Shown one piece after another: positions 6,600-19,531 of a DNA stretch of 64,000 nt. The notes beneath the pieces are model-generated. The model searched no databases and had not been told where the DNA came from. It saw only the letters and a list, made by a program, of their open reading frames with translations. The position numbers and the translations under genes were made by a program. Origin of the DNA: Acidimicrobiia bacterium (GTDB lineage Bacteria; Actinomycetota; Acidimicrobiia; IMCC26256; JAENVU01); assembly GCA_038250905.1 (NCBI GenBank), contig JBBSBV010000026.1, positions 310-64,309 on the forward strand, written 5' to 3'. How positions within the stretch are numbered: the stretch's first letter is position 1; the number at the start of each line of letters is the position of its first letter.

Positions 6600-9110
6600 T
6601 CAAATCGGTGTGGGGGCGTACTCGTCGGGCGCTTCGCCCTCGGGGCGAGGCTTGACGAGTCCACGCGACACCCAGTTGTGCTGGTCGGCCCAGACGAGCA
6701 TCGGCGGCAGCACGACGAGTGCACTCAGTAGCGCGACCGCCACGTTGACGGCCACGATGATGCCGAAGTCCCGCAGCAGTGGCAGCGAGGATGTGGCGAT
6801 GACCGCGACCCCGGAGATGGCCGTGAGGGCGGAGACGATGAACGCGCGTCCCGTGCGCGCGGCCGCCACGTCGACCGCTTCTTTGGGACTCAACCCTCGT
6901 CGTCGTTCCTCGACGAACCGCAGCAGGATCAGCGAGGTGAACTCCGTACACGCCGCGACCACCAAGGGACCACCGACGGCCGTCATCGGGCTGAGGGTGA
7001 AGCCGGCGAAGTAGGCGAAGAGCGACGCGACACCCACCGCGATCATCACCGGCACCAACGACAGGAGCGATCGGATGACCGAACGCAGCCGGACGGTGAG
7101 GAACAGGAAGACGAAGCCGATCGAGAGGTAGGTGAGCAGAATCCGATTCGCCTCGAGGTTGTCGAGGAGCCCGACACCCACGACCGCGAGGCCGGATGGC
7201 GTGGCACGGATCCCGGCGGGCGGCTGTACGCGCTTGCGGATCTCCTTCACCACGACCGCTCGTTTCGCCAGCGATGCCGGGGTGGTCGCGAAGATCAGGT
7301 TGACCGCCTTCCCGTCCTTACTCACGGTGGAGCTGCGGATCCCCGCGGGCGCAACGTCGAAGACCCGCTTCACCTCGGCCCCGGTGGGCACCACCGGCTG
7401 GGTCCCCGGTACTTCGGTGAGGAAGCTGACGATGCTGACGATGCTCGAGGCATTGGCCAGCACCCGCTTCTGCGGGCCGATGGCCTTGGCGTCAGCCGGA
7501 CACTGCTGTCCGGCGCGCTTCGCGTCGCCGTAGCGACACAGCTGTTCGGCCGTGAAGTCGTCGACGAACTTCACGGTCTGGTTCGAGAACGCGTGGCCCG
7601 AGACCACGTACATCCCGAGCTCGCTCGAGATACCCGCCTGGTGTTCGATCTCGTGGATGTTGCGCACCGCGGTGGACGACGGGCTCACCCACGCGATGGG
7701 GTCGGTCTGGATCTCGAGTTTGTTTTCCACCAGTACCCCACCGACGAAGACGACCAGCGCGGCCCCGACGAGCACGGGCGCGACCTTCGACGACATGCCG
7801 CCGAAAAAGACGACGAGGCGACCGAGCGGGCCCTCGCGGTAGTCACGGGACTGGGTCGGTGACCGGTACTCCCGAATTCCGAGCGCCGAGAGCGTGCCCA
7901 TGATGGACACGAAACAGATCGCGGCAACGCCCACCGCGAGCAGGAGCCCGAAGCTGCGAATCATCGGCACCTTCGAGAACCGCAGGGCGGCGAAGGCGAA
8001 GATCGCGTCGAAGGTCACGACGATCAGTGCGGGTCCGAGGTTGCGGGCGGTCTCCTGGATCGGATGGGCCGAGTGGTCGATGATCACCTCCTCCTCGATC
8101 CGGGCGTGCATCTGGATCGAGTAGTCGATGCCGATCCCGAGCATCACCGGCAGGCCGCTGATGGTGACGAGCGTCAAGGGGATACCGAGATACCCGGCCA
8201 GACCGAACGCCCAGACCACACCGATCAACACGATGCCGAGTGGCAACAGCCGCCACCGGACGTTGAACAGCACCAGCAGGATCACGATCATGATCGCGAC
8301 CGCGATGCCCCCGAGCAGCAGCATTCCGCCCTTGAGGTACTTGTTGATGTCGTTGAGCAGCACCGCCGCGCCACCGGTCACGATCTTCGCGTTCGGGAAC
8401 GAGACCGGCTTCATGGTCGCGATCGTGTAATCGGCACCGCGACCTTCCTGCTCGATCGACGCGTTGCCTTGCAGTCGCGTGATGATCAACGCGTGACGCT
8501 GGTCCGGGAAGAACGGCAACAACGCCTTACGGACTTCACCCTGGTTGTCGATGAGGAGGAACTTGACCCAGTCCGGGTTCGCGAGCGTCTGATCGGCGCA
8601 CGGGACGGCGTTCACGCGTTCCAGGGTCTTGGTCGCGTCGGTGAACCGAGCTGCCTGCTCGGCCTGAGGCGCGCGGGCCTGGGCCGCGAGGATCAACTCG
8701 CCGGCGATGCTCTTCGTGGGGTCGCAGGTCTTGCTCGAGACGAGGTTGTTCGACAGCTGCAACGCGTCGACCGGCGTGATCACACCCAGGATGTCCTTGC
8801 GGTCCATCGCCAGTTGCTTGCCGATGGCCTGGAGCTTGGCGCGGTTCCGGTCGTTCAGGAGTTCGTCGACCGTGTGGCCTTTGTCCATCGAGATGACGGT
8901 GAGCATCGCCTCGCCGCCGAACAACTTCTGATACGCGACGTTGTCCTTGTAGACCTGGTCGGTCGTGTTCAGGTACGCGTCCTGGCCGGAGGTGAACTTC
9001 AGCTGCGTGATCCCGGCGCCGAGCGAGAGCGTGATCAGGAGTCCGACGATCGAAACGACACCTGCCCGCTTTCCGAGGTTGACTGCCAACCAGGACCAGA
9101 ACCGATGCAT
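6600..9110 (-). CDS. RND/MMPL family transporter (HAE3-like)
   Basis: Two repeats of 1 TM + large loop + 5 TM; GIGIDYSI motif. Confidence 0.9.
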   Translation of the reverse strand: MHRFWSWLAVNLGKRAGVVSIVGLLITLSLGAGITQLKFTSGQDAYLNTTDQVYKDNVAYQKLFGGEAMLTVISMDKGHTVDELLNDRNRAKLQAIGKQLAMDRKDILGVITPVDALQLSNNLVSSKTCDPTKSIAGELILAAQARAPQAEQAARFTDATKTLERVNAVPCADQTLANPDWVKFLLIDNQGEVRKALLPFFPDQRHALIITRLQGNASIEQEGRGADYTIATMKPVSFPNAKIVTGGAAVLLNDINKYLKGGMLLLGGIAVAIMIVILLVLFNVRWRLLPLGIVLIGVVWAFGLAGYLGIPLTLVTISGLPVMLGIGIDYSIQMHARIEEEVIIDHSAHPIQETARNLGPALIVVTFDAIFAFAALRFSKVPMIRSFGLLLAVGVAAICFVSIMGTLSALGIREYRSPTQSRDYREGPLGRLVVFFGGMSSKVAPVLVGAALVVFVGGVLVENKLEIQTDPIAWVSPSSTAVRNIHEIEHQAGISSELGMYVVSGHAFSNQTVKFVDDFTAEQLCRYGDAKRAGQQCPADAKAIGPQKRVLANASSIVSIVSFLTEVPGTQPVVPTGAEVKRVFDVAPAGIRSSTVSKDGKAVNLIFATTPASLAKRAVVVKEIRKRVQPPAGIRATPSGLAVVGVGLLDNLEANRILLTYLSIGFVFLFLTVRLRSVIRSLLSLVPVMIAVGVASLFAYFAGFTLSPMTAVGGPLVVAACTEFTSLILLRFVEERRRGLSPKEAVDVAAARTGRAFIVSALTAISGVAVIATSSLPLLRDFGIIVAVNVAVALLSALVVLPPMLVWADQHNWVSRGLVKPRPEGEAPDEYAPTPI

Positions 9111-9316: not shown

Positions 9317-9377
9317 CGAGAGATCAGCAAGACGGGGCACCGTCGTGCGTGCTCGGTTGCTCCGGCGACCGATTCTT

Positions 9378-9455
9378 GGTGGCCGTAGCTCAGTTGGCTA
9401 GAGCGCCGGGTTGTGATCCCGGAGGTCGGGGGTTCGAAACCCCTCGGTCACCCCA
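9378..9455 (+). tRNA. tRNA-His(GTG)
   Basis: G-1 present; CCGGG-TT-GTG-AT-CCCGG; encoded CCA. Confidence 0.95.
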
Positions 9456-12607: not shown

Positions 12608-14155
12608 ATGCAGGGTGACGGCCCGACCACGGAAATCACCGACATCGGTAAATCGCTCGCAAACGGCACCCCCGACCAGATCAATCACGCGGTCGACCAG
12701 CTCCTCGCTCGCTTGCGCCGCGACGGCGACGCCGCCGAGGCGATCGCAGCCGGCGAAGCGCTCCAGTCCGCTCGCCGCTTCGATGCCCTTCTCAAGCTGG
12801 CGGACGCGGCGGCGCGCATCGCAGGTCCCGAGCAGTCGGCCGAGCTGTGGCTGCTCGCGATCACGGGACTGATCGAGCTGGAGGCATCGCTCACCGCCGA
12901 GCGGCTCGTCAAGTCGCTCCTCGCCGAGCCGGCCATGACGCCGTTCCGCCCGCGGTTGCTCGCACGGCTGGGCCGCATCAAGAAGGACCAGTACGTCGAT
13001 TCCGGTGAACCCGCCGCGCTCGAGCAAGCGATCGACGCCTACGTCGACGCCTACACCGCCGGCGCCGACCCGTTGTGGGTCGGCGTCAACGCCGTCGCAC
13101 TCCGGGCGCTCGCCACACGTCGGGGCTTCCCGGCCGACCACGCGGCGCCGGTACCGTTGGAGCACCTCTTCGAGCTCGCGACCTCGGCGCCGATGCCCCG
13201 GCCGGCATGGTCCATCACGACCGAGCTCGAGCTCCGCATGGCGCGGGGCGAGCCGGCCGCCGCCCTGGGGCCTCTCCTGGTCCAGCTGTTCGGCGCGCCC
13301 GATGCCACCGGTTTCGTCTACGCGAGCCTCGCCCGCCAGCTCGCCGAAATCTGGGAGCTCGATGCGGCCGATCCGCTCATGGTGATGCTCGGCGAGAAGA
13401 CGCTCGCCAGCGGCCAGGGTGAGGTGAAGCTCCCGACCACCGCCGCGGACTACGAGAGCCTCTTCGGGGCGGAGACGCCGATCGGGATCGAGAACTACCT
13501 GAAGGGCGCCGGCTGCGCCTGTGCGGTCGGCGCATTGCTGCATCCGAGCCGGGGCCTTCGGGGCACGGTGTTCGCCGTGGAGGGCGCCAACCTGCACTCG
13601 TCGCTCGCCGGTCGCGTCGTCTTGATCACGAACGAGCACGTGGTTCCCGACCCCGAACACCACGACGCACCCGGAGCCGACGAGCTGACGGCGCACTTCG
13701 TCGCGGCCAAGATCGGGCCCAACGAAGCGCTGAGCGAGTTGTCGTTCGGCGCGCTGCGCACGATCTGGCAGTCGCCGCGCGAGAAGCTCGACGTGAGCTT
13801 GCTGATTTCGGACGATCCCGCGGTCGCGCAGTTGAGCGGTCTCGCCCCGCCTGAGCCCGGCAAGCTACCCGAGGTGTTCCCCGGCGCGTTCGTGTATGTG
13901 ATCGGACACCCGAGCGGCGGCGATCTGGCGCTCTCGATACGCGGCAACGACCTGATCGAGATCGCTGACGACAACATCCGCATCCACTACAAAGCGCCCA
14001 CCCAGCCGGGGAGTTCGGGCAGCCCGGTCTTCAACGAGTCGTGGGAACTGATCGGCGTGCACCACATGGGCGCCCCGACGTGCCCGCCCGGGAACGAAGG
14101 CATCGCACTCCAGGCCATCCGCGCCGAACTCGTGGCGCGACCACCGAAGCTGTGA
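12608..14155 (+). CDS. Helical-repeat (DUF4071/TRAF-binding-like) domain + trypsin-like serine protease
   Basis: Triad TNEHV / KLDVS / TQPGSSGSP; LIGVHH; N-terminal LGRIKKD...AIDAY...WVGVNA; TAGCTT -10 just upstream of ATG. Confidence 0.85.
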   Translation: MQGDGPTTEITDIGKSLANGTPDQINHAVDQLLARLRRDGDAAEAIAAGEALQSARRFDALLKLADAAARIAGPEQSAELWLLAITGLIELEASLTAERLVKSLLAEPAMTPFRPRLLARLGRIKKDQYVDSGEPAALEQAIDAYVDAYTAGADPLWVGVNAVALRALATRRGFPADHAAPVPLEHLFELATSAPMPRPAWSITTELELRMARGEPAAALGPLLVQLFGAPDATGFVYASLARQLAEIWELDAADPLMVMLGEKTLASGQGEVKLPTTAADYESLFGAETPIGIENYLKGAGCACAVGALLHPSRGLRGTVFAVEGANLHSSLAGRVVLITNEHVVPDPEHHDAPGADELTAHFVAAKIGPNEALSELSFGALRTIWQSPREKLDVSLLISDDPAVAQLSGLAPPEPGKLPEVFPGAFVYVIGHPSGGDLALSIRGNDLIEIADDNIRIHYKAPTQPGSSGSPVFNESWELIGVHHMGAPTCPPGNEGIALQAIRAELVARPPKL

Positions 14156-14162
14156 GGTACGC

Positions 14163-16820
14163 ATGGGCATCCTGACGGACCGCAAGGTCAGCGCCGGCCG
14201 CGTGAAGGCCATCGTGTTCGGCCCGATTGGCGACGCGTTGCGCAACCACCTCGTGACCCTCGCCTACGTGGACATGGGCAAGGAGATGTCCGAGCTGCTC
14301 GGCCCCGACGACGCCAACTGGACGTGTCTCGCGGTGTGGCCCTCCTTCACCGTCGGCGAAACGATCCGCGCCACCGGCGACCCGCTCGGACTGAAGCGGA
14401 TGCTGGGCCGCGCGCAGAGCGACCCGTTGGGTCTCGCTCGCGAGAAGGCCACCGGGCGCCTCCTGCGCGGCCGCACCTCGGACGGTCGGGTATTGAACCG
14501 CAGCCTCGCGGCCGGCAACCGCGGCGTGTTCTTCGAGATCGGACTCTGCTGGGCCGACTTCCTCGCGACGTTCGCGCACAAGACCCTCACCGACGCCGAG
14601 GAGCTCTCCGAGTTCCAGAAGTTCGCCGAACGCATCGACCGGGTTCCGCTGCCGCCGGGCAAGCTGTGGCCGGACGGCAACCGTGAGCAGCTCAAGAAGG
14701 GCTTCGCGGCGTACCTCGAGGCGATGAGCTGTACCGATCCGAAACGCAAGGCCGAGCTGATCCTGCTCGGCAACATCTGCATGGGCGACCACGAACAGCG
14801 CCGGCTCCAGGGGTGGCTCGACCTCTCACTCCTCGAACCCATACGTATCGTGGCCAAGCCGATCCGCAACCTCGGTGCGGGTCGATTCGTGGGCCGCGTC
14901 GAGACTGCCTGGTCGCTTGTGATGACGCGCAAGGTGTTCGTCGTGAAGATGGACAAGGAGACCATCCGTGTCGGTCGTCCCGTGGCACTGACCGCCGGTC
15001 AGTACCCCGCACCGCTCGACACGCTCGACGCGCCCGAGGCGGTCGCGGAATACCTGCGTGTCGTGAATGCCGGAGGTGGCGCCGCGACCGGAGCGCACCA
15101 CTGGAACGACTTCCCCGACCGGATGAGCTTCATCGCGTCGCTGTTCCGTGCCAAGCAGCGGTCGGGCCTCGTCGGCATCAGCCCGTACACCCCCGAACAG
15201 GAAGCGCAGATCTGGGCCGAGGCCGCGGCGGTCGAAGCCAAGGACGCGGCGTTCTTCGAAGAGTTCGAAGGCGCACTCTTGTTCCCCAAGGCCGAGACAT
15301 CGCCCTGGTCGATCGAGGTCATGCAGGACCTCGTCGTGCGACTCGACGCCGGGCGGCGACGGTGCGACCCACCGATCGACGATGCGATCGAACAGTTCTA
15401 CCGAGGCACGGGAATCCCTCGTACCGATCGGCACTTCACCGACGTGTTGATGGCGATCGCGGATCCGAGTAGCCAACCGGACAACCCCGTGACCGCGTTC
15501 CTCCACGAGGCACCGGTGCTGCCGAAGTGGGCCGACCTCGAACGGATCAAGCGCGCGCAGGCCTTCTTCCAGACGTTCCGGCCGTCGATCCACGCATCGC
15601 TCTTCTTCGGATCGATGTTCCTCGGCTACGCGGCGGGCAACGGAGTGCAGGTGCTCGCGTTGGTGAGCGATCTCACGAACTCACCGGAGCGACGCATCTG
15701 GGAATCGACCCGGTTCGTCGAGGACATCTGCACCACGCCGTTCTGGGAGCAAGACAGCGCCGGGTGGAAGTCGTTGCGGGGCGTGCGGGTGTACCACGGC
15801 TCGATGCGGGCGATGATCGAGTCCGGCAGCCAGCACATCAAGCCGATCGCCGAGTACCCCACCGATCGCGTGTGGGATGCCGCCTGGGGCCGGCCGATCA
15901 ATCAGGAAGACATGTTCGGCTACTGCCTCACGATGGCGGTGCCCACGATCGAGAACCTCGATCGAATGGGTGCGGCGATCGATCCCGAGCAAGCCCTCGA
16001 CTGGTTGCATCTCTGGAACGTGATCGGCGTCCTGATGGGCGTCGAGGAGTCCTGGGTCATCAGCCCGCTCGACCCGACCCGGGACTTGTCGCTCGAAGAG
16101 GCTCGGTGCGCGCTCGACATCATCCTGACCCGCAACGTGAAACCCACCCCGCAGGGGCGCCAACTCACGCAGACGCTGCTCGAGCAGATCGGCTGGTTTC
16201 CCGGCCCGCTCCAGCGGGTCGCGCGCACGTTCATCCGTTCGTCCATCGGCGATCGCAACGCCGACATGCTCGGCGTCCCCCAGCGCGGACTGCTCGAGCC
16301 CGCGTTGTCGGGCATGCAGAACGTGTTCCGCACATTGCGTCAGAACGGCGCCTACTCGGCCGGGTCCCGGAAACTCACCGAGTGGCTCGGCAGCGAGTTC
16401 CTCGACTGGTGGCATCAGCAGTACAAGGACACGCCACCGTACCGGCAGGGCGGTACCGCGGCCATCGCGGCGCGCGCCCCCGATCCGAGCACGCGCGCAC
16501 CGCGCCAGATCTCGATCACGATCGACTCGACCGGCGAGCTCCCGCCCGAGGTCACCGCCGCCATCTCGGCCGTCAAGGACGTCGACGTGGTCCAACAGCC
16601 GCAGACCAACTTCTACGAGAGCCTCGACATGCAGACACTGCTGAAGGGCACCGTGCTCCCAGGCCCTGCGGTGGGTGCCCTGGTCAGCGCCGTCGTCGCG
16701 TCCACCAAGGGGGTCGCCTCGGTGCGCCAGGTGACGCTCACGATCGACGGGCGCGACGTCGCGCTCACGACGCTGTCCGACGAAGAAGTGAACCTACTGC
16801 TCCCCGAACTGACCGCGTAG
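14163..16820 (+). CDS. Fusion: uncharacterised N-terminal domain + MpaB/Lcp (DUF2236)-like heme oxygenase domain + small C-terminal domain
   Basis: RRIWEST, VRVYHGSMR (RxxH), WGRPINQEDM, WLHLWNVIGVLMGV typical of MpaB/Lcp family; GAGG RBS, 7 nt after protease stop. Confidence 0.8.
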   Translation: MGILTDRKVSAGRVKAIVFGPIGDALRNHLVTLAYVDMGKEMSELLGPDDANWTCLAVWPSFTVGETIRATGDPLGLKRMLGRAQSDPLGLAREKATGRLLRGRTSDGRVLNRSLAAGNRGVFFEIGLCWADFLATFAHKTLTDAEELSEFQKFAERIDRVPLPPGKLWPDGNREQLKKGFAAYLEAMSCTDPKRKAELILLGNICMGDHEQRRLQGWLDLSLLEPIRIVAKPIRNLGAGRFVGRVETAWSLVMTRKVFVVKMDKETIRVGRPVALTAGQYPAPLDTLDAPEAVAEYLRVVNAGGGAATGAHHWNDFPDRMSFIASLFRAKQRSGLVGISPYTPEQEAQIWAEAAAVEAKDAAFFEEFEGALLFPKAETSPWSIEVMQDLVVRLDAGRRRCDPPIDDAIEQFYRGTGIPRTDRHFTDVLMAIADPSSQPDNPVTAFLHEAPVLPKWADLERIKRAQAFFQTFRPSIHASLFFGSMFLGYAAGNGVQVLALVSDLTNSPERRIWESTRFVEDICTTPFWEQDSAGWKSLRGVRVYHGSMRAMIESGSQHIKPIAEYPTDRVWDAAWGRPINQEDMFGYCLTMAVPTIENLDRMGAAIDPEQALDWLHLWNVIGVLMGVEESWVISPLDPTRDLSLEEARCALDIILTRNVKPTPQGRQLTQTLLEQIGWFPGPLQRVARTFIRSSIGDRNADMLGVPQRGLLEPALSGMQNVFRTLRQNGAYSAGSRKLTEWLGSEFLDWWHQQYKDTPPYRQGGTAAIAARAPDPSTRAPRQISITIDSTGELPPEVTAAISAVKDVDVVQQPQTNFYESLDMQTLLKGTVLPGPAVGALVSAVVASTKGVASVRQVTLTIDGRDVALTTLSDEEVNLLLPELTA

Positions 16821-16831
16821 GTCGCACACGC

Positions 16832-19531
16832 TCACCCGGCGATCGCGATCGCCAATCGGTCGCGGGCAGTCCGCATCGCTTCCGCCTGGTCGAGACCCTC
16901 CGCCCGGTCTTCCCAACGTCGCATCTGATCCTCGCCGACACTCAGGCGGAGCTTGTCGAACGCGGCGGCGAGATCCTCGGTATCGGCGGGCAAGAGCGGC
17001 AGCGCAAACTCCGCCGCCGACGCCGCATGGTTCAGTACGACGGCGGTCTCGAAGTCGCCGGCATCGGCAAGGCACAGCGCGGCCTGGCGCAAGGCCGACC
17101 AGAGGTGCGACCGATGCCCTGCTCGCTCCCACGTATCGAGCAGCGCGAGCACCATCGTCATCGCGTCGCGCAGGGATCCGTGACGGCGGCGGACCGATGC
17201 CAGGCGCGTCGTGCACAATGCTTCGATCCAGTGATTCTCCACCGAGCGGGCTCGGGCAAGACTGTCGTCGAACAGTGCCTCCGCGTACTCGACGTCAACG
17301 AGTTCGGTGGCAACCGCCCGGCCGAACAGTGCCCACGCGATCGTGGACGGATTCTCCGATTCGCGCGCACTGGCAACCGCCCGGTTCGCGAGATCGAGCG
17401 CCGCCGCGCCGCGCCCGGCGAAGCTGCGACCCAGCGACCGTACGACGTCGACGTTCGTCTGCCAATACGGGTTGGCCGAGTCGCTCGACAGCTCGATGAC
17501 CTCCGCCATCACGGAGCGCACGTCTGACACGGCTCCGCCGTACTCCGCCGAGTTCAGGAGTGCGAGACGAGCGGGGAGGGACCGCGGCGCACCCAGTACC
17601 CGTTCCAGGCGCAGCGACTCCGATGCGAACTGCTCCGCCTTCAGCGGGCTCTCGCGAATCCAGCCCCCCAACGCCACGATCCCGAGCACCATTGCCCGGT
17701 CGGGGTTGTCCGGCGCCGCGGCGACACACGCCGCCTCGCCCCAGTCGAAGATCTCCGACCGCATCCGCATGAACGCGTAGTCCCAGAGCGAGGCAACAAT
17801 CCGCAACGCGGCATCGGCATCGCCGGCGTTGATCGCTCGCGCGTGGGCCGTCCGAAGATTGTCGAAGTCGAGCTCGATCTGCACGACGCATCGTGCCTCG
17901 TCCGGGCCGCGGAGCGAGGTGCCCGCGGCTTCCGCCACGCCCACGTAGTGGCGCACGAACCCGGCGTGCACGGTTGCCCGGTCGGATGCGTCGAGGCGTG
18001 CATCCGCATAGGCGCGGACCGGCTCGAGCAGGCGGAAGCGCGTCCGTTCTCGCCGAGTCTCCGACGTGAGGAGCGACCGATCGACCAGGCCGCGCAGGAG
18101 TTCCAGTACCCGGGAACTGTCGAGATGCGGCGACACGACCGCCGCGAACGCGGCGCGGTCGAACGAACCGGGCAGGACTGAGCACCGGACGAAGGCCTCA
18201 CGGAGCATCGGCTCGAGGCGATTGAAGGTGAGATCGAGTGCGTCTTCGACCGAGCGGTGCCGGGTGAGGCCGCGGCTCGACGTCGGCAGGTCACCGGCCC
18301 GGACGGCTTCGAGAATGTCGGCGAGTGACAGCGACGACGCATTCGACGCTGCGACTTCGATCGCCAACGGCACTCCGGCCACCGCCCGACATACGTCGCG
18401 CGCCAGCGCTCGCGTGCGCGCATCATCGACCAGGTCGGCACCCGCGGCTCGAGCGCGCTCGATGAACAGCTCGACACTGTCGTCGGCGGCGACCTCGGCG
18501 CGCAACGGCTGCAACATCGTCACGTGCTCGCCGGGCACGCCCAGAGGCTCGCGACTGGTTGCCAACAGGTGGCAGCGCGGCGCGTCCAGGGATACCGCGA
18601 GTGCGAGTTCGGCCACCGATTCCGTCGCTTCCTCGCAGTTGTCGAGGATGAGCAACAGCTCCCTGTCGCGCAGCCATTCGACCACGCTCTCCTCGGCGCT
18701 GCGCAGGGTCCTCCGTTCGACGCCGAGCGCCTTCCCGAGGGCCACACCCACCTGCGACGCCAGAACACCGGAGAACTCGCACATCACCACGCCGTCGGCG
18801 AACCGGTCTTGGACACCTGACGCCGCCTCCACCGCCAGGCGGGTCTTTCCGACCCCGGCCAGACCGACCAACGTGACCAACCGATGCGTGAGCAGTTGCT
18901 CGCGGAGACGCTCGACCTCGGCGGTCCGCCCGACGAAGCTCGTGAGCGATCGCGGGATGGTGGGAACCGCCCGGGTTGCGCCCCGCACCTCGTGGAGGTG
19001 GTCGGGAAGACCCTCGGCCAGCACCGTGTAGACCCGAACCGGCTCGGCAACGTCGCGGAGGTGATGCATCCCCAGATCGAGGAACTCGACTCGCTCCGTC
19101 ATGCTCCGTCCGGCCTCGGACTCCGCAATGCCGGATACGACGATCTGGCCACCGTGGGCCAACGTGTGCAGTCGAGCGGTCGCGTTGAGGGCCCAACCGA
19201 AGAACTCGCCGTCGCGTTCGATGACGTCGCCCGAGTGCACGCCCATGCGTACCAGCAAGGCACCCAGACCCGAAAAGTCGGCGGCCGCGAGCGCCCGCTG
19301 CGCAGCGAGCGCGGCGTCGACCGCCGCGCCTGCGCCGGAGAACACGGCGACGATCCCGTCGCCGGTGTGCTTCACGATGTGTCCACCGACCCCGGTGATG
19401 GCGGTGCGCAACAGGAGGTCGTGCTGTTCGAGTGCGGCCAGCATCGCGTCCGGGAACTGGTCCCACAGGCGCGTGCTCGATTCGATGTCCGTGAAGAGGA
19501 ACGTCCGACGAACAGTCGCTGACGACGGCAT
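16832..19531 (-). CDS. Class III adenylate/guanylate cyclase + STAND (NB-ARC-like) ATPase + TPR-like region
   Basis: FLFTDIESST, KHTGDG, RMGVHSG, LNATARL; Walker A GLAGVGKT; Walker B LLILDNCE; ATSREPL; GVPLAIE. Confidence 0.9.
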   Translation of the reverse strand: MPSSATVRRTFLFTDIESSTRLWDQFPDAMLAALEQHDLLLRTAITGVGGHIVKHTGDGIVAVFSGAGAAVDAALAAQRALAAADFSGLGALLVRMGVHSGDVIERDGEFFGWALNATARLHTLAHGGQIVVSGIAESEAGRSMTERVEFLDLGMHHLRDVAEPVRVYTVLAEGLPDHLHEVRGATRAVPTIPRSLTSFVGRTAEVERLREQLLTHRLVTLVGLAGVGKTRLAVEAASGVQDRFADGVVMCEFSGVLASQVGVALGKALGVERRTLRSAEESVVEWLRDRELLLILDNCEEATESVAELALAVSLDAPRCHLLATSREPLGVPGEHVTMLQPLRAEVAADDSVELFIERARAAGADLVDDARTRALARDVCRAVAGVPLAIEVAASNASSLSLADILEAVRAGDLPTSSRGLTRHRSVEDALDLTFNRLEPMLREAFVRCSVLPGSFDRAAFAAVVSPHLDSSRVLELLRGLVDRSLLTSETRRERTRFRLLEPVRAYADARLDASDRATVHAGFVRHYVGVAEAAGTSLRGPDEARCVVQIELDFDNLRTAHARAINAGDADAALRIVASLWDYAFMRMRSEIFDWGEAACVAAAPDNPDRAMVLGIVALGGWIRESPLKAEQFASESLRLERVLGAPRSLPARLALLNSAEYGGAVSDVRSVMAEVIELSSDSANPYWQTNVDVVRSLGRSFAGRGAAALDLANRAVASARESENPSTIAWALFGRAVATELVDVEYAEALFDDSLARARSVENHWIEALCTTRLASVRRRHGSLRDAMTMVLALLDTWERAGHRSHLWSALRQAALCLADAGDFETAVVLNHAASAAEFALPLLPADTEDLAAAFDKLRLSVGEDQMRRWEDRAEGLDQAEAMRTARDRLAIAIAG

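Follow-up and report, generated by a model that had tools for sequence, protein, structure and literature searches.

The described systems closest to the locus reported here are protease-gated effectors. In the two-gene EACC1–caspase system (Kaur et al. 2020, PMC7159879; Evans et al. 2025), according to the accessible parts of these sources, cleavage of EACC1 releases a toxic fragment of 7.1 kDa, which causes liposome leakage (Evans et al. 2025, bioRxiv 10.1101/2025.11.14.688446), and the same preprint presents a caspase-linked alpha/beta-hydrolase as a zymogen cut at Arg73 and Arg117. Here, we analyse a gene pair in a 64,000-nucleotide stretch of an Acidimicrobiia contig (JBBSBV010000026.1), the whole of which is referred to as the window. 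A TPR-S–trypsin-like serine protease is encoded there, 7 nt upstream of a co-directional gene for a large partner protein made of a helical N-domain, a heme-type Lcp/MpaB domain and an EACC1-like tail (Table 1). Judging from residue conservation, the pair is likely a protease–substrate module, a Glu-specific version of the known protease-gated defence effectors. The complete reading, in which a Glu-cutting protease with one self-site acts on a dedicated substrate with two sites within a conflict-type locus, is held with moderate confidence.

Partner homologues were compared in an alignment (A1) of 35 full-length or near-full-length sequences taken from 40 homologues, two fragments and three distant N-domain fusions being left out; 31 of the aligned sequences carry the tail and four are tail-less. 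Glu occupies both predicted cleavage sites in 24 of the 31 tailed sequences, with Tyr, Phe or Leu before both in 22 of them and Thr before site 1 in the other two. The remaining seven lack [YFL]-E at both sites, and no sequence lacks site 2 alone. E819, at site 2, is invariant in all 19 tails from the collected loci, although it lies inside an otherwise variable acidic loop. Site 1 (E369) reads [YFL]-E-G; it had been overlooked by the first-pass annotation, which placed a single site in the partner, and it is the only site that tail-less relatives keep. In the protease, the linker before the catalytic domain has the consensus [LYF]-E-[KRA]-[VI]-[FL]-G, with Glu in 113 and Gln in seven of 121 sequences, so that the Glu of both motifs noted originally, in the linker and in the partner tail (19/19), is indeed conserved. 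The linker and both partner sites are low-confidence loops in the AlphaFold models. By these counts, conservation of the [YFL]-E core exceeds chance at both places. One aromatic-Glu motif is maintained among relatives in the linker and in both partner loops, which makes two cuts in the partner likely, and we consider cleavage of the partner at these Glu residues highly probable.

The argument that had drawn attention to the pair was a different one, namely that the word YESL, with identical DNA, is shared by the protease linker and the partner tail. The sharing is real: TACGAGAGCCTC occurs in the window exactly twice, encoding protease residues 282–285 and partner residues 818–821, and 66 residues follow the partner Glu, as had been proposed. 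A third copy of this 12-mer lies elsewhere in the genome. The caveat that a four-residue match can arise by chance proved well founded, as the two proteins share 9 four-mers versus 9.7 ± 3.2 after shuffling, and 87% of size-matched adjacent segments drawn at random from this genome share a 12-mer. Duplication of the motif at the DNA level was ruled out, given that 53% of such random pairs share even a 13-mer and that the codons are common ones; because four orthologues use the same codons for YESL, the repeated 12-mer points to codon preference. The exact word is found in only four of 121 protease linkers. Among 15 orthologous pairs with both motifs readable, the four letters are identical in one (the window itself) and the residue after Glu is the same in two, and the co-variation expected between orthologous pairs does not appear. 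Thus, of the supposed conservation, the [YFL]-E core stands at linker and tail, while exact YESL does not. Neither the match of four letters nor that of the underlying DNA is informative; the feature picked out by the earlier reader is real, although the reason given for it was partly wrong.

The protease was examined in an alignment of 121 sequences, comprising the window protease and the 120 listed among 233 homologues. The catalytic triad, Thr465 and His485 are each present in 119 of the 121 sequences and Gly488 in 116; in an earlier, smaller alignment of 76 sequences, the triad, Thr465 and His485 are invariant. Thr465 and His485 align with the residues of staphylococcal glutamyl endopeptidase (Esp) at positions 190 and 213, as the first-pass annotation had assigned them. 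The six best PDB matches to the protease profile are all glutamyl endopeptidases, fold searches retrieve DegS, Esp and V8 (chymotrypsin fold), and the TPR part of the profile matches the regulatory TPRs of ASK1. The enzyme is V8-like, with triad and S1 residues kept and its best profile relatives among the glutamyl endopeptidases. The further claim that Thr190 and His213 define Glu specificity was overstated: in the part of PMC5508998 available, a His213 mutant of a Bacillus glutamyl endopeptidase still cuts after Glu, so that the two residues alone do not fix specificity, and the Gln-specific viral 3C proteases have S1 features in common with V8-type enzymes. In V8-type enzymes with Gly216, a free N-terminus completes the S1 pocket (PMC5508998, same part). 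Because the S1 residues are kept and Glu is conserved in the linker and in the neighbours, Glu specificity of the window protease is nevertheless likely. The Glu at P1 of the linker suggests self-maturation, for which E283 is a plausible position; self-cleavage of the protease as such is reasonably probable. The linker motif is family-wide, whatever gene adjoins the protease. The N-terminus consists of an acidic stretch followed by the TPR-S region, with no signal peptide apparent by eye.

Other members of the protease family offer further observations. In one homologue (P0075), a permuted papain-like (C92) domain is joined to the TPR-S-trypsin and may be a further cargo. Fifteen loci on viral contigs have short protease-domain matches only. 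Operons of the trypsin/NucA type (L134:1-7879, L139:1415-3403 and L113) contain Glu words such as FES, LES and ERII in linkers, which suggests that NucA–trypsin systems may use the same processing code.

The partner sites were then set against the presence of the protease gene. The protease lies upstream of the partner in 19 of 23 loci, and two of the other four (L007 and L023) end short; the loci L005 and L021 are almost identical, and a single genome contributed both L007 and L019. The last two, L013 and L016, have neither a protease within 10 kb on each side nor either partner site. Profile searches found no TPR-S-trypsin anywhere in these two genomes, whose completeness is not stated: that of L013 has no match to the protease profile and that of L016 only a trypsin–nuclease fusion elsewhere. 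These loci supply the genomic context for two of the seven site-less sequences. In a quick tree built without the tail, all seven nest inside the site-bearing group, and absence of the sites is therefore taken as secondary loss. In this sample, the partner sites follow the protease and appear to be lost jointly with it.

The class search had matched 23 other genomes, and for a deeper comparison wider DNA was taken from 20 of them, four of the regions being short. None of these 20 distant N-domain/Lcp loci has a protease or a tail, a match to the cyclase profile is found in 14 of them, and the two main domains are separate open reading frames (ORFs) in six of the 11 loci that hold both. As the distant loci have the cyclase-type gene but neither protease nor tail, the older unit would have been the N-domain and heme-type domain beside a cyclase, with protease, sites and tail added in one lineage. 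Of the partner's companions, the cyclase neighbour is the oldest. The distant loci (L061–L080) also outline a wider Acidimicrobiia module, with N-domain and Lcp/MpaB domain fused or split and a cyclase-type gene near 14 of 20, possibly an undescribed heme-sensor/cyclase pathway. A distant, tail-less paralogue of the partner is encoded in the window's own genome (G000:C13, about 84800-87150). It has no protease in its vicinity and lies between two related large genes whose products group with cyclase-STAND proteins.

A second candidate substrate family was found on rhizobial plasmids, where an alpha/beta-hydrolase gene precedes a TPR-S-trypsin gene in four fetched loci, two of them nearly identical; a Sinorhizobium and a Rhizobium etli pair (L130 and L132) are among them. 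In addition, TPR-S-trypsin is fused to such a hydrolase in eight of nine homologues longer than 800 amino acids (P0038, P0043, P0049, P0054, P0057, P0069, P0072 and P0084). All 12 trypsin-linked hydrolases carry [YH]-E-[SGR] near residue 64–75, in one case as AAYESL, and a second motif, x-E-R-[IF]-P, near residues 126–145. Eight further loci from 50 matches served as controls. Six of these stand beside caspase-type proteins (assigned by Pfam in two, by record annotation in one and by our own reading in three) and have QG, KG, RG or MG, with no [YF]-E in those loops; the two that belong to trypsin operons have Glu motifs. The trypsin-linked hydrolases are candidates for a Glu-activated version of the hydrolase zymogen.

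Turning to the partner's architecture, the N-domain has no Pfam or Atlas match, DUF2515 appearing only at E 0.036–0.076 in two relatives, and the fold search barely probed this domain. Elsewhere it forms fusions with polyketide-cyclase (START-like) and TIR domains (P0160 and P0161). The Lcp/MpaB domain matches the latex clearing protein structure 5o1l with Z 27.2 and a root-mean-square deviation of 3.8 over 339 residues. In Lcp, Glu148 has a catalytic role; its position is taken here by G494, with Gly in at least 90% of the 35 aligned sequences. In the alignment, R511, S515 and H545 are equivalent to the Lcp heme-site residues Arg164, Thr168 and His198 (named in PMC9108482). The domain probably serves as a sensor that binds heme, and not as a rubber oxygenase.

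The tail comprises 106 amino acids with a predicted ferredoxin-like fold, and its fold matches are ACT/ferredoxin-like domains (Z about 6). With a profile of 30 EACC1 sequences, the window tail scores 17.7 bits versus 1.7 for the reversed sequence, YES is aligned onto the EACC1 G-x-M-G loop, and hhalign returns a P value of 7e-4 and a probability of 26%, rising to 42–70% with stand-alone tail relatives. The best 19-residue hydropathy of the helix in the predicted C-terminal fragment is 1.01–1.59 in the window's clade (nine tails), beside an EACC1 median of 1.75 (range 0.95–2.23). The tail is thus weakly EACC1-like in layout, and EACC1 membership is not established. Stand-alone relatives of the tail (P0172, P0178, P0179 and P0185; 103–115 amino acids) belong to no Pfam family; one has PDDGYES, and their loops read GYES, RSLD, RMD or HVG, perhaps tracking different proteases. 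Three other matches to the tail profile (P0164, P0171 and P0175) were rejected as repeat artefacts.

The window belongs to the GC-rich genome of a soil actinobacterium, and the closest loci are labelled mostly Acidimicrobiia. The cyclase-STAND gene lies directly downstream of the partner in 18 of 23 loci, and a relative of the TIR-WD40 gene, a loosely linked candidate sensor or signal maker, occurs within the fetched DNA of 11 of 23, in varying orientation. In 11 loci of one clade (e.g. L008:9069-9971), a membrane protein with two tandem SLATT domains is encoded between protease and partner; this gene is absent from the window's clade. The whole 4.2 kb stretch is present on one contig in a sequencing run of a different study, with 14 differences, so that the gene order is no artefact of assembly. 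No RNA run was listed among the sequencing runs containing the stretch, which has no bearing on its expression. PADLOC 2023 and the NCBIfam system models have no match to the partner and only weak trypsin-domain matches to the protease (E 2e-4 and worse). No close orthologue was found in 400 other genomes of the class, a sample that includes one unpublished genome, and no protease match in 400 genomes of the phylum; the locus is patchy and of conflict type. Just upstream of the TIR gene, near 9357–9430 and about 8520–8590, the ORF translations contain tRNA-like text, and the module may sit at a tRNA integration site. Three long-contig assemblies (L009, L010 and L017) have frameshifts in the partner or protease genes, from sequencing error or decay.

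Table 1. Positions and basis of the features discussed (window coordinates, except where a locus label precedes the range; cleavage sites are predicted).
Feature	Position	Strand	Basis
TIR – transmembrane segment – WD40 protein, 1008 amino acids	9555..12581	+	Pfam TIR_2 19-117 and WD40; transmembrane segment read from sequence
TPR-S – trypsin-like serine protease, 515 amino acids (P0001)	12608..14155	+	Pfam TPR-S 58-165, Trypsin_2 338-484; AlphaFold mean predicted local distance difference test (pLDDT) 91.9
Protease linker motif Y282-E283-S284-L285, predicted self-cleavage after E283	13451..13462	+	E in 113/121 homologues; pLDDT 54 at residues 281-290
Triad H344 (13637), D395 (13790), S470 (14015); S1 residues T465 (14000), H485 (14060), G488 (14069)	13637..14071	+	Alignment rows
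Partner protein, 885 amino acids (P0002): N-domain, Lcp/MpaB domain, EACC1-like tail	14163..16820	+	Pfam, models, fold search
Helical N-domain, about residues 1-360	14163..15242	+	No family match
Partner site 1, F368-E369-G370-A371, loop joining the N-domain to the heme-type domain, predicted cut after E369	15264..15275	+	Glu in 24/31 tailed and 3/4 tail-less rows; pLDDT <50 at 364-368
Lcp/MpaB domain (globin-fold, heme-type), about residues 383-760	15309..16442	+	Pfam MPAB_Lcp_cat; fold and alignment
EACC1-like tail, predicted beta-alpha-beta-[site]-beta-alpha-beta-beta-alpha	16500..16817	+	Models, profile comparison, fold search
Partner site 2, Y818-E819-S820-L821, predicted cut after E819 giving residues 820-885 (66 amino acids, 6.7 kDa)	16614..16625	+	E in 19/19 locus tails; pLDDT <50 at 816-821
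Class III cyclase – NB-ARC (STAND) – helical-repeat protein, 899 amino acids, convergent	16832..19531	-	Pfam Guanylate_cyc, NB-ARC
Alpha/beta-hydrolase beside TPR-S-trypsin	L130:6696-9308, L131:4720-7221, L132:4414-6921, L133:4046-6657		Fetched loci

Taken together, the module might work in four steps. A signal at the TPR-S region, a putative nucleotide sensor, would switch the protease on; the signal could be a nucleotide from the TIR or cyclase protein. The protease would then cut its own linker between YE283 and SLFG, leaving a 232-residue catalytic domain whose free N-terminus would complete the S1 pocket. In the third and best-supported step, three pieces would arise from the partner: an N-domain of 40.6 kDa, a 50.5 kDa piece in which the heme-type domain retains half of the tail (its first half), and a C-terminal fragment of 6.7 kDa. 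In the fourth and least certain step, the fragment of the window's clade, with its apolar helix, would assemble in the membrane like cleaved EACC1 and act as a death effector, and the cut at site 1 would simultaneously uncouple the heme-type domain from the N-domain; a pore-forming fragment in this clade is a tentative proposal. A broader scenario, which we regard as rather doubtful, is that TPR-S-trypsins are Glu-specific, self-maturing immune proteases that took over caspase-type effectors, namely an EACC1-like pore module and the hydrolase zymogen, by rewriting their loops to aromatic-Glu, and that one of them, in Acidimicrobiia, captured an old heme-sensor/cyclase module, so that a single activation would yield both a freed heme domain and a membrane-killing fragment and would link gas or redox sensing to cell suicide.

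Several results weigh against parts of this proposal. Cleavage itself is something we infer from sequence. The partner has ten [YFL]-E dipeptides, some conserved for structure (E125 and E520). Complex prediction for the protease domain with the tail, run without folded controls, gave scores of 0.08 and 0.02 against a mark of 0.32, which counts neither for nor against the proposal. On the tree, the site losses amount to one or two events (the groups are joined with support 42), one only with genomic context, and independent events are accordingly few. Tail-less relatives keep site 1, and as the one with context (L014) retains the protease as well, the tail is not the constant purpose of the system; moreover, site-less relatives retain the tail, which can thus persist uncut. 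For the likeness to EACC1, hhalign gives a probability of only 0.3% with a five-row EACC1 profile, and an Atlas score of 0.81 is a lead only. The EACC1 Pfam model, PF19953, matches none of the 19 tails at E up to 10 and nothing in the window's own genome. A search of the tail profile against 1.84 billion representatives returned 19 matches, with no PF19953 among the 14 new ones scanned, and an extended tail profile returned eight, none with a Pfam family. Published EACC1 partners, in the parts seen of Kaur et al. and Evans et al., are caspases. The charged helix in the SLATT-bearing clade (hydropathy 0.59–1.32; ten tails) speaks against a general pore: pore formation is doubtful in half the family, and the SLATT protein and the tail may substitute for each other as effectors, or the tail may form no pore. 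Lastly, the second hydrolase motif is weaker than the first: its P2 residue varies, alignment of the loops is poor and T-E-[RK]-G stands at the same place in two caspase-linked controls, so that the first motif alone is clean.

Some of these points suit a different outcome, protease-gated signalling instead of death, in which cuts at E369 and E819 would rewire the older heme-sensor/cyclase module and the tail would be a ferredoxin-fold interaction or oligomerisation domain whose release alters the activity of the cyclase-STAND protein. The cyclase neighbour predates the protease (14/20 distant loci) and outlasts its loss (L013 and L016), a cut at site 1 would reproduce the natural split of the main domains seen in six of 11 distant loci, the heme His is retained while Lcp Glu148 has become Gly, and both the ACT/ferredoxin-like tail fold and the charged helices of the SLATT clade fit such a role. 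We nonetheless think it unlikely, as the companions (TIR, SLATT, STAND and TPR-S) are typical of conflict systems, the system is patchy across the 400 class and 400 phylum genomes, and site 2 falls on the loop where EACC1 is cut. A less probable account still, and one we give little weight, treats the motifs as structural or docking elements, the protease cutting only itself or other proteins, such as the SLATT protein, and binding the partner Glu motifs uncut. The family-wide linker motif, kept regardless of neighbour, and the two-SLATT membrane effector between the genes in 11 loci agree with it, but the window's clade keeps both sites without a SLATT gene, both are found in variable loops of low model confidence and are lost along with the protease, and the aligned SLATT proteins show no evident conservation of an aromatic-Glu loop. 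Pure coincidence between adjoining genes that share a short word, which does hold for the four-letter word and its DNA, is very improbable and largely refuted for the Glu core by E819 in 19/19 tails, the paired loss in 7/31 rows, the linkage in 19/23 loci and the hydrolase motif.

If the protease–substrate module is real, it provides residue-level predictions (E283, E369 and E819) for an uncharacterised protease family and suggests a rule whereby the residue carried by the cleavage loop of an effector matches the class of the adjoining protease. Such a rule would add a Glu-cut class to the Ile-, Arg- and Asp-cut effectors of 2025, and the substrates of TPR-S-trypsins could be read from neighbouring genes by motif. 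The Lcp/MpaB heme-type domain, known so far from oxygenases, is placed in a conflict or stress-signalling operon. Protease-gated effectors follow a known logic. No published account of this pairing, nor of the protease class, the fusion or the double site, turned up in our searches, which were insensitive (TPR-S returned nothing, even with SLOG), and a supplementary figure of Evans et al. on EACC1 neighbourhoods, outside the part of the preprint available, could show trypsin partners.

Among known systems, the EACC1–caspase pair is the nearest, and it is closer than the bacterial gasdermins that the first-pass annotation had offered as an analogue. As far as the accessible parts of its descriptions go, both have a small alpha/beta domain beside a protease, a cut (predicted in our case) in the loop after the first beta-alpha-beta unit and a C-terminal fragment of ~7 kDa with a central helix, and both are mostly actinobacterial. 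They differ in that the protease here has a trypsin fold with a Glu-type S1 pocket and is not a caspase, and in that the tail is fused behind a 780-residue N-domain/heme-type protein and lies downstream of the trypsin gene, whereas EACC1 is a stand-alone gene upstream of the caspase-domain gene. The tail is also missed by the Pfam model, its helix is charged in the SLATT clade, and the partner has the extra site E369. The caspase-cut hydrolase zymogen, as presented in that part of Evans et al. 2025, resembles the hydrolases that stand beside or are fused to TPR-S-trypsin (similar by tblastn), which likewise carry motifs in a pair of N-terminal loops; these read [YH]-E and x-E-R rather than R|G, and their correspondence to Arg73 and Arg117 of the Lysobacter protein is one of approximate position only. 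Trypsin–MBL and trypsin–Pepco (Trypco), in the same source, likewise combine a sensor-fused trypsin-like protease with site-specific activation of a neighbour, MBL being cut twice, but those enzymes cut after Ile, whereas the P1 residue predicted here is Glu and the substrate is unrelated.

At the level of single proteins, the protease shares with the V8-type glutamyl endopeptidases (SspA, Esp and BIGEP; PMC5508998, as far as available) the triad, Thr190, His213, Gly216, the best PDB matches and the need for a processed N-terminus. It differs from these secreted pre-pro-enzymes in having a TPR-S N-terminus and no evident signal peptide, and V8-type enzymes are mostly matured by other proteases. 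The heme-type domain has the fold (Z 27), heme His and Arg/Thr(Ser) of the Lcp/MpaB oxygenases, unlike which it has Gly in place of Glu148, no evident secretion signal and two extra flanking domains. A gasdermin is not listed in the fold searches made with the whole 885-residue partner model, and no sequence similarity to gasdermins was found. As proposed for the present module, bacterial gasdermins rely on a protease to free an effector from autoinhibition; the C-terminal piece set free is the inhibitor in their case, whereas here it is predicted to be the active part.

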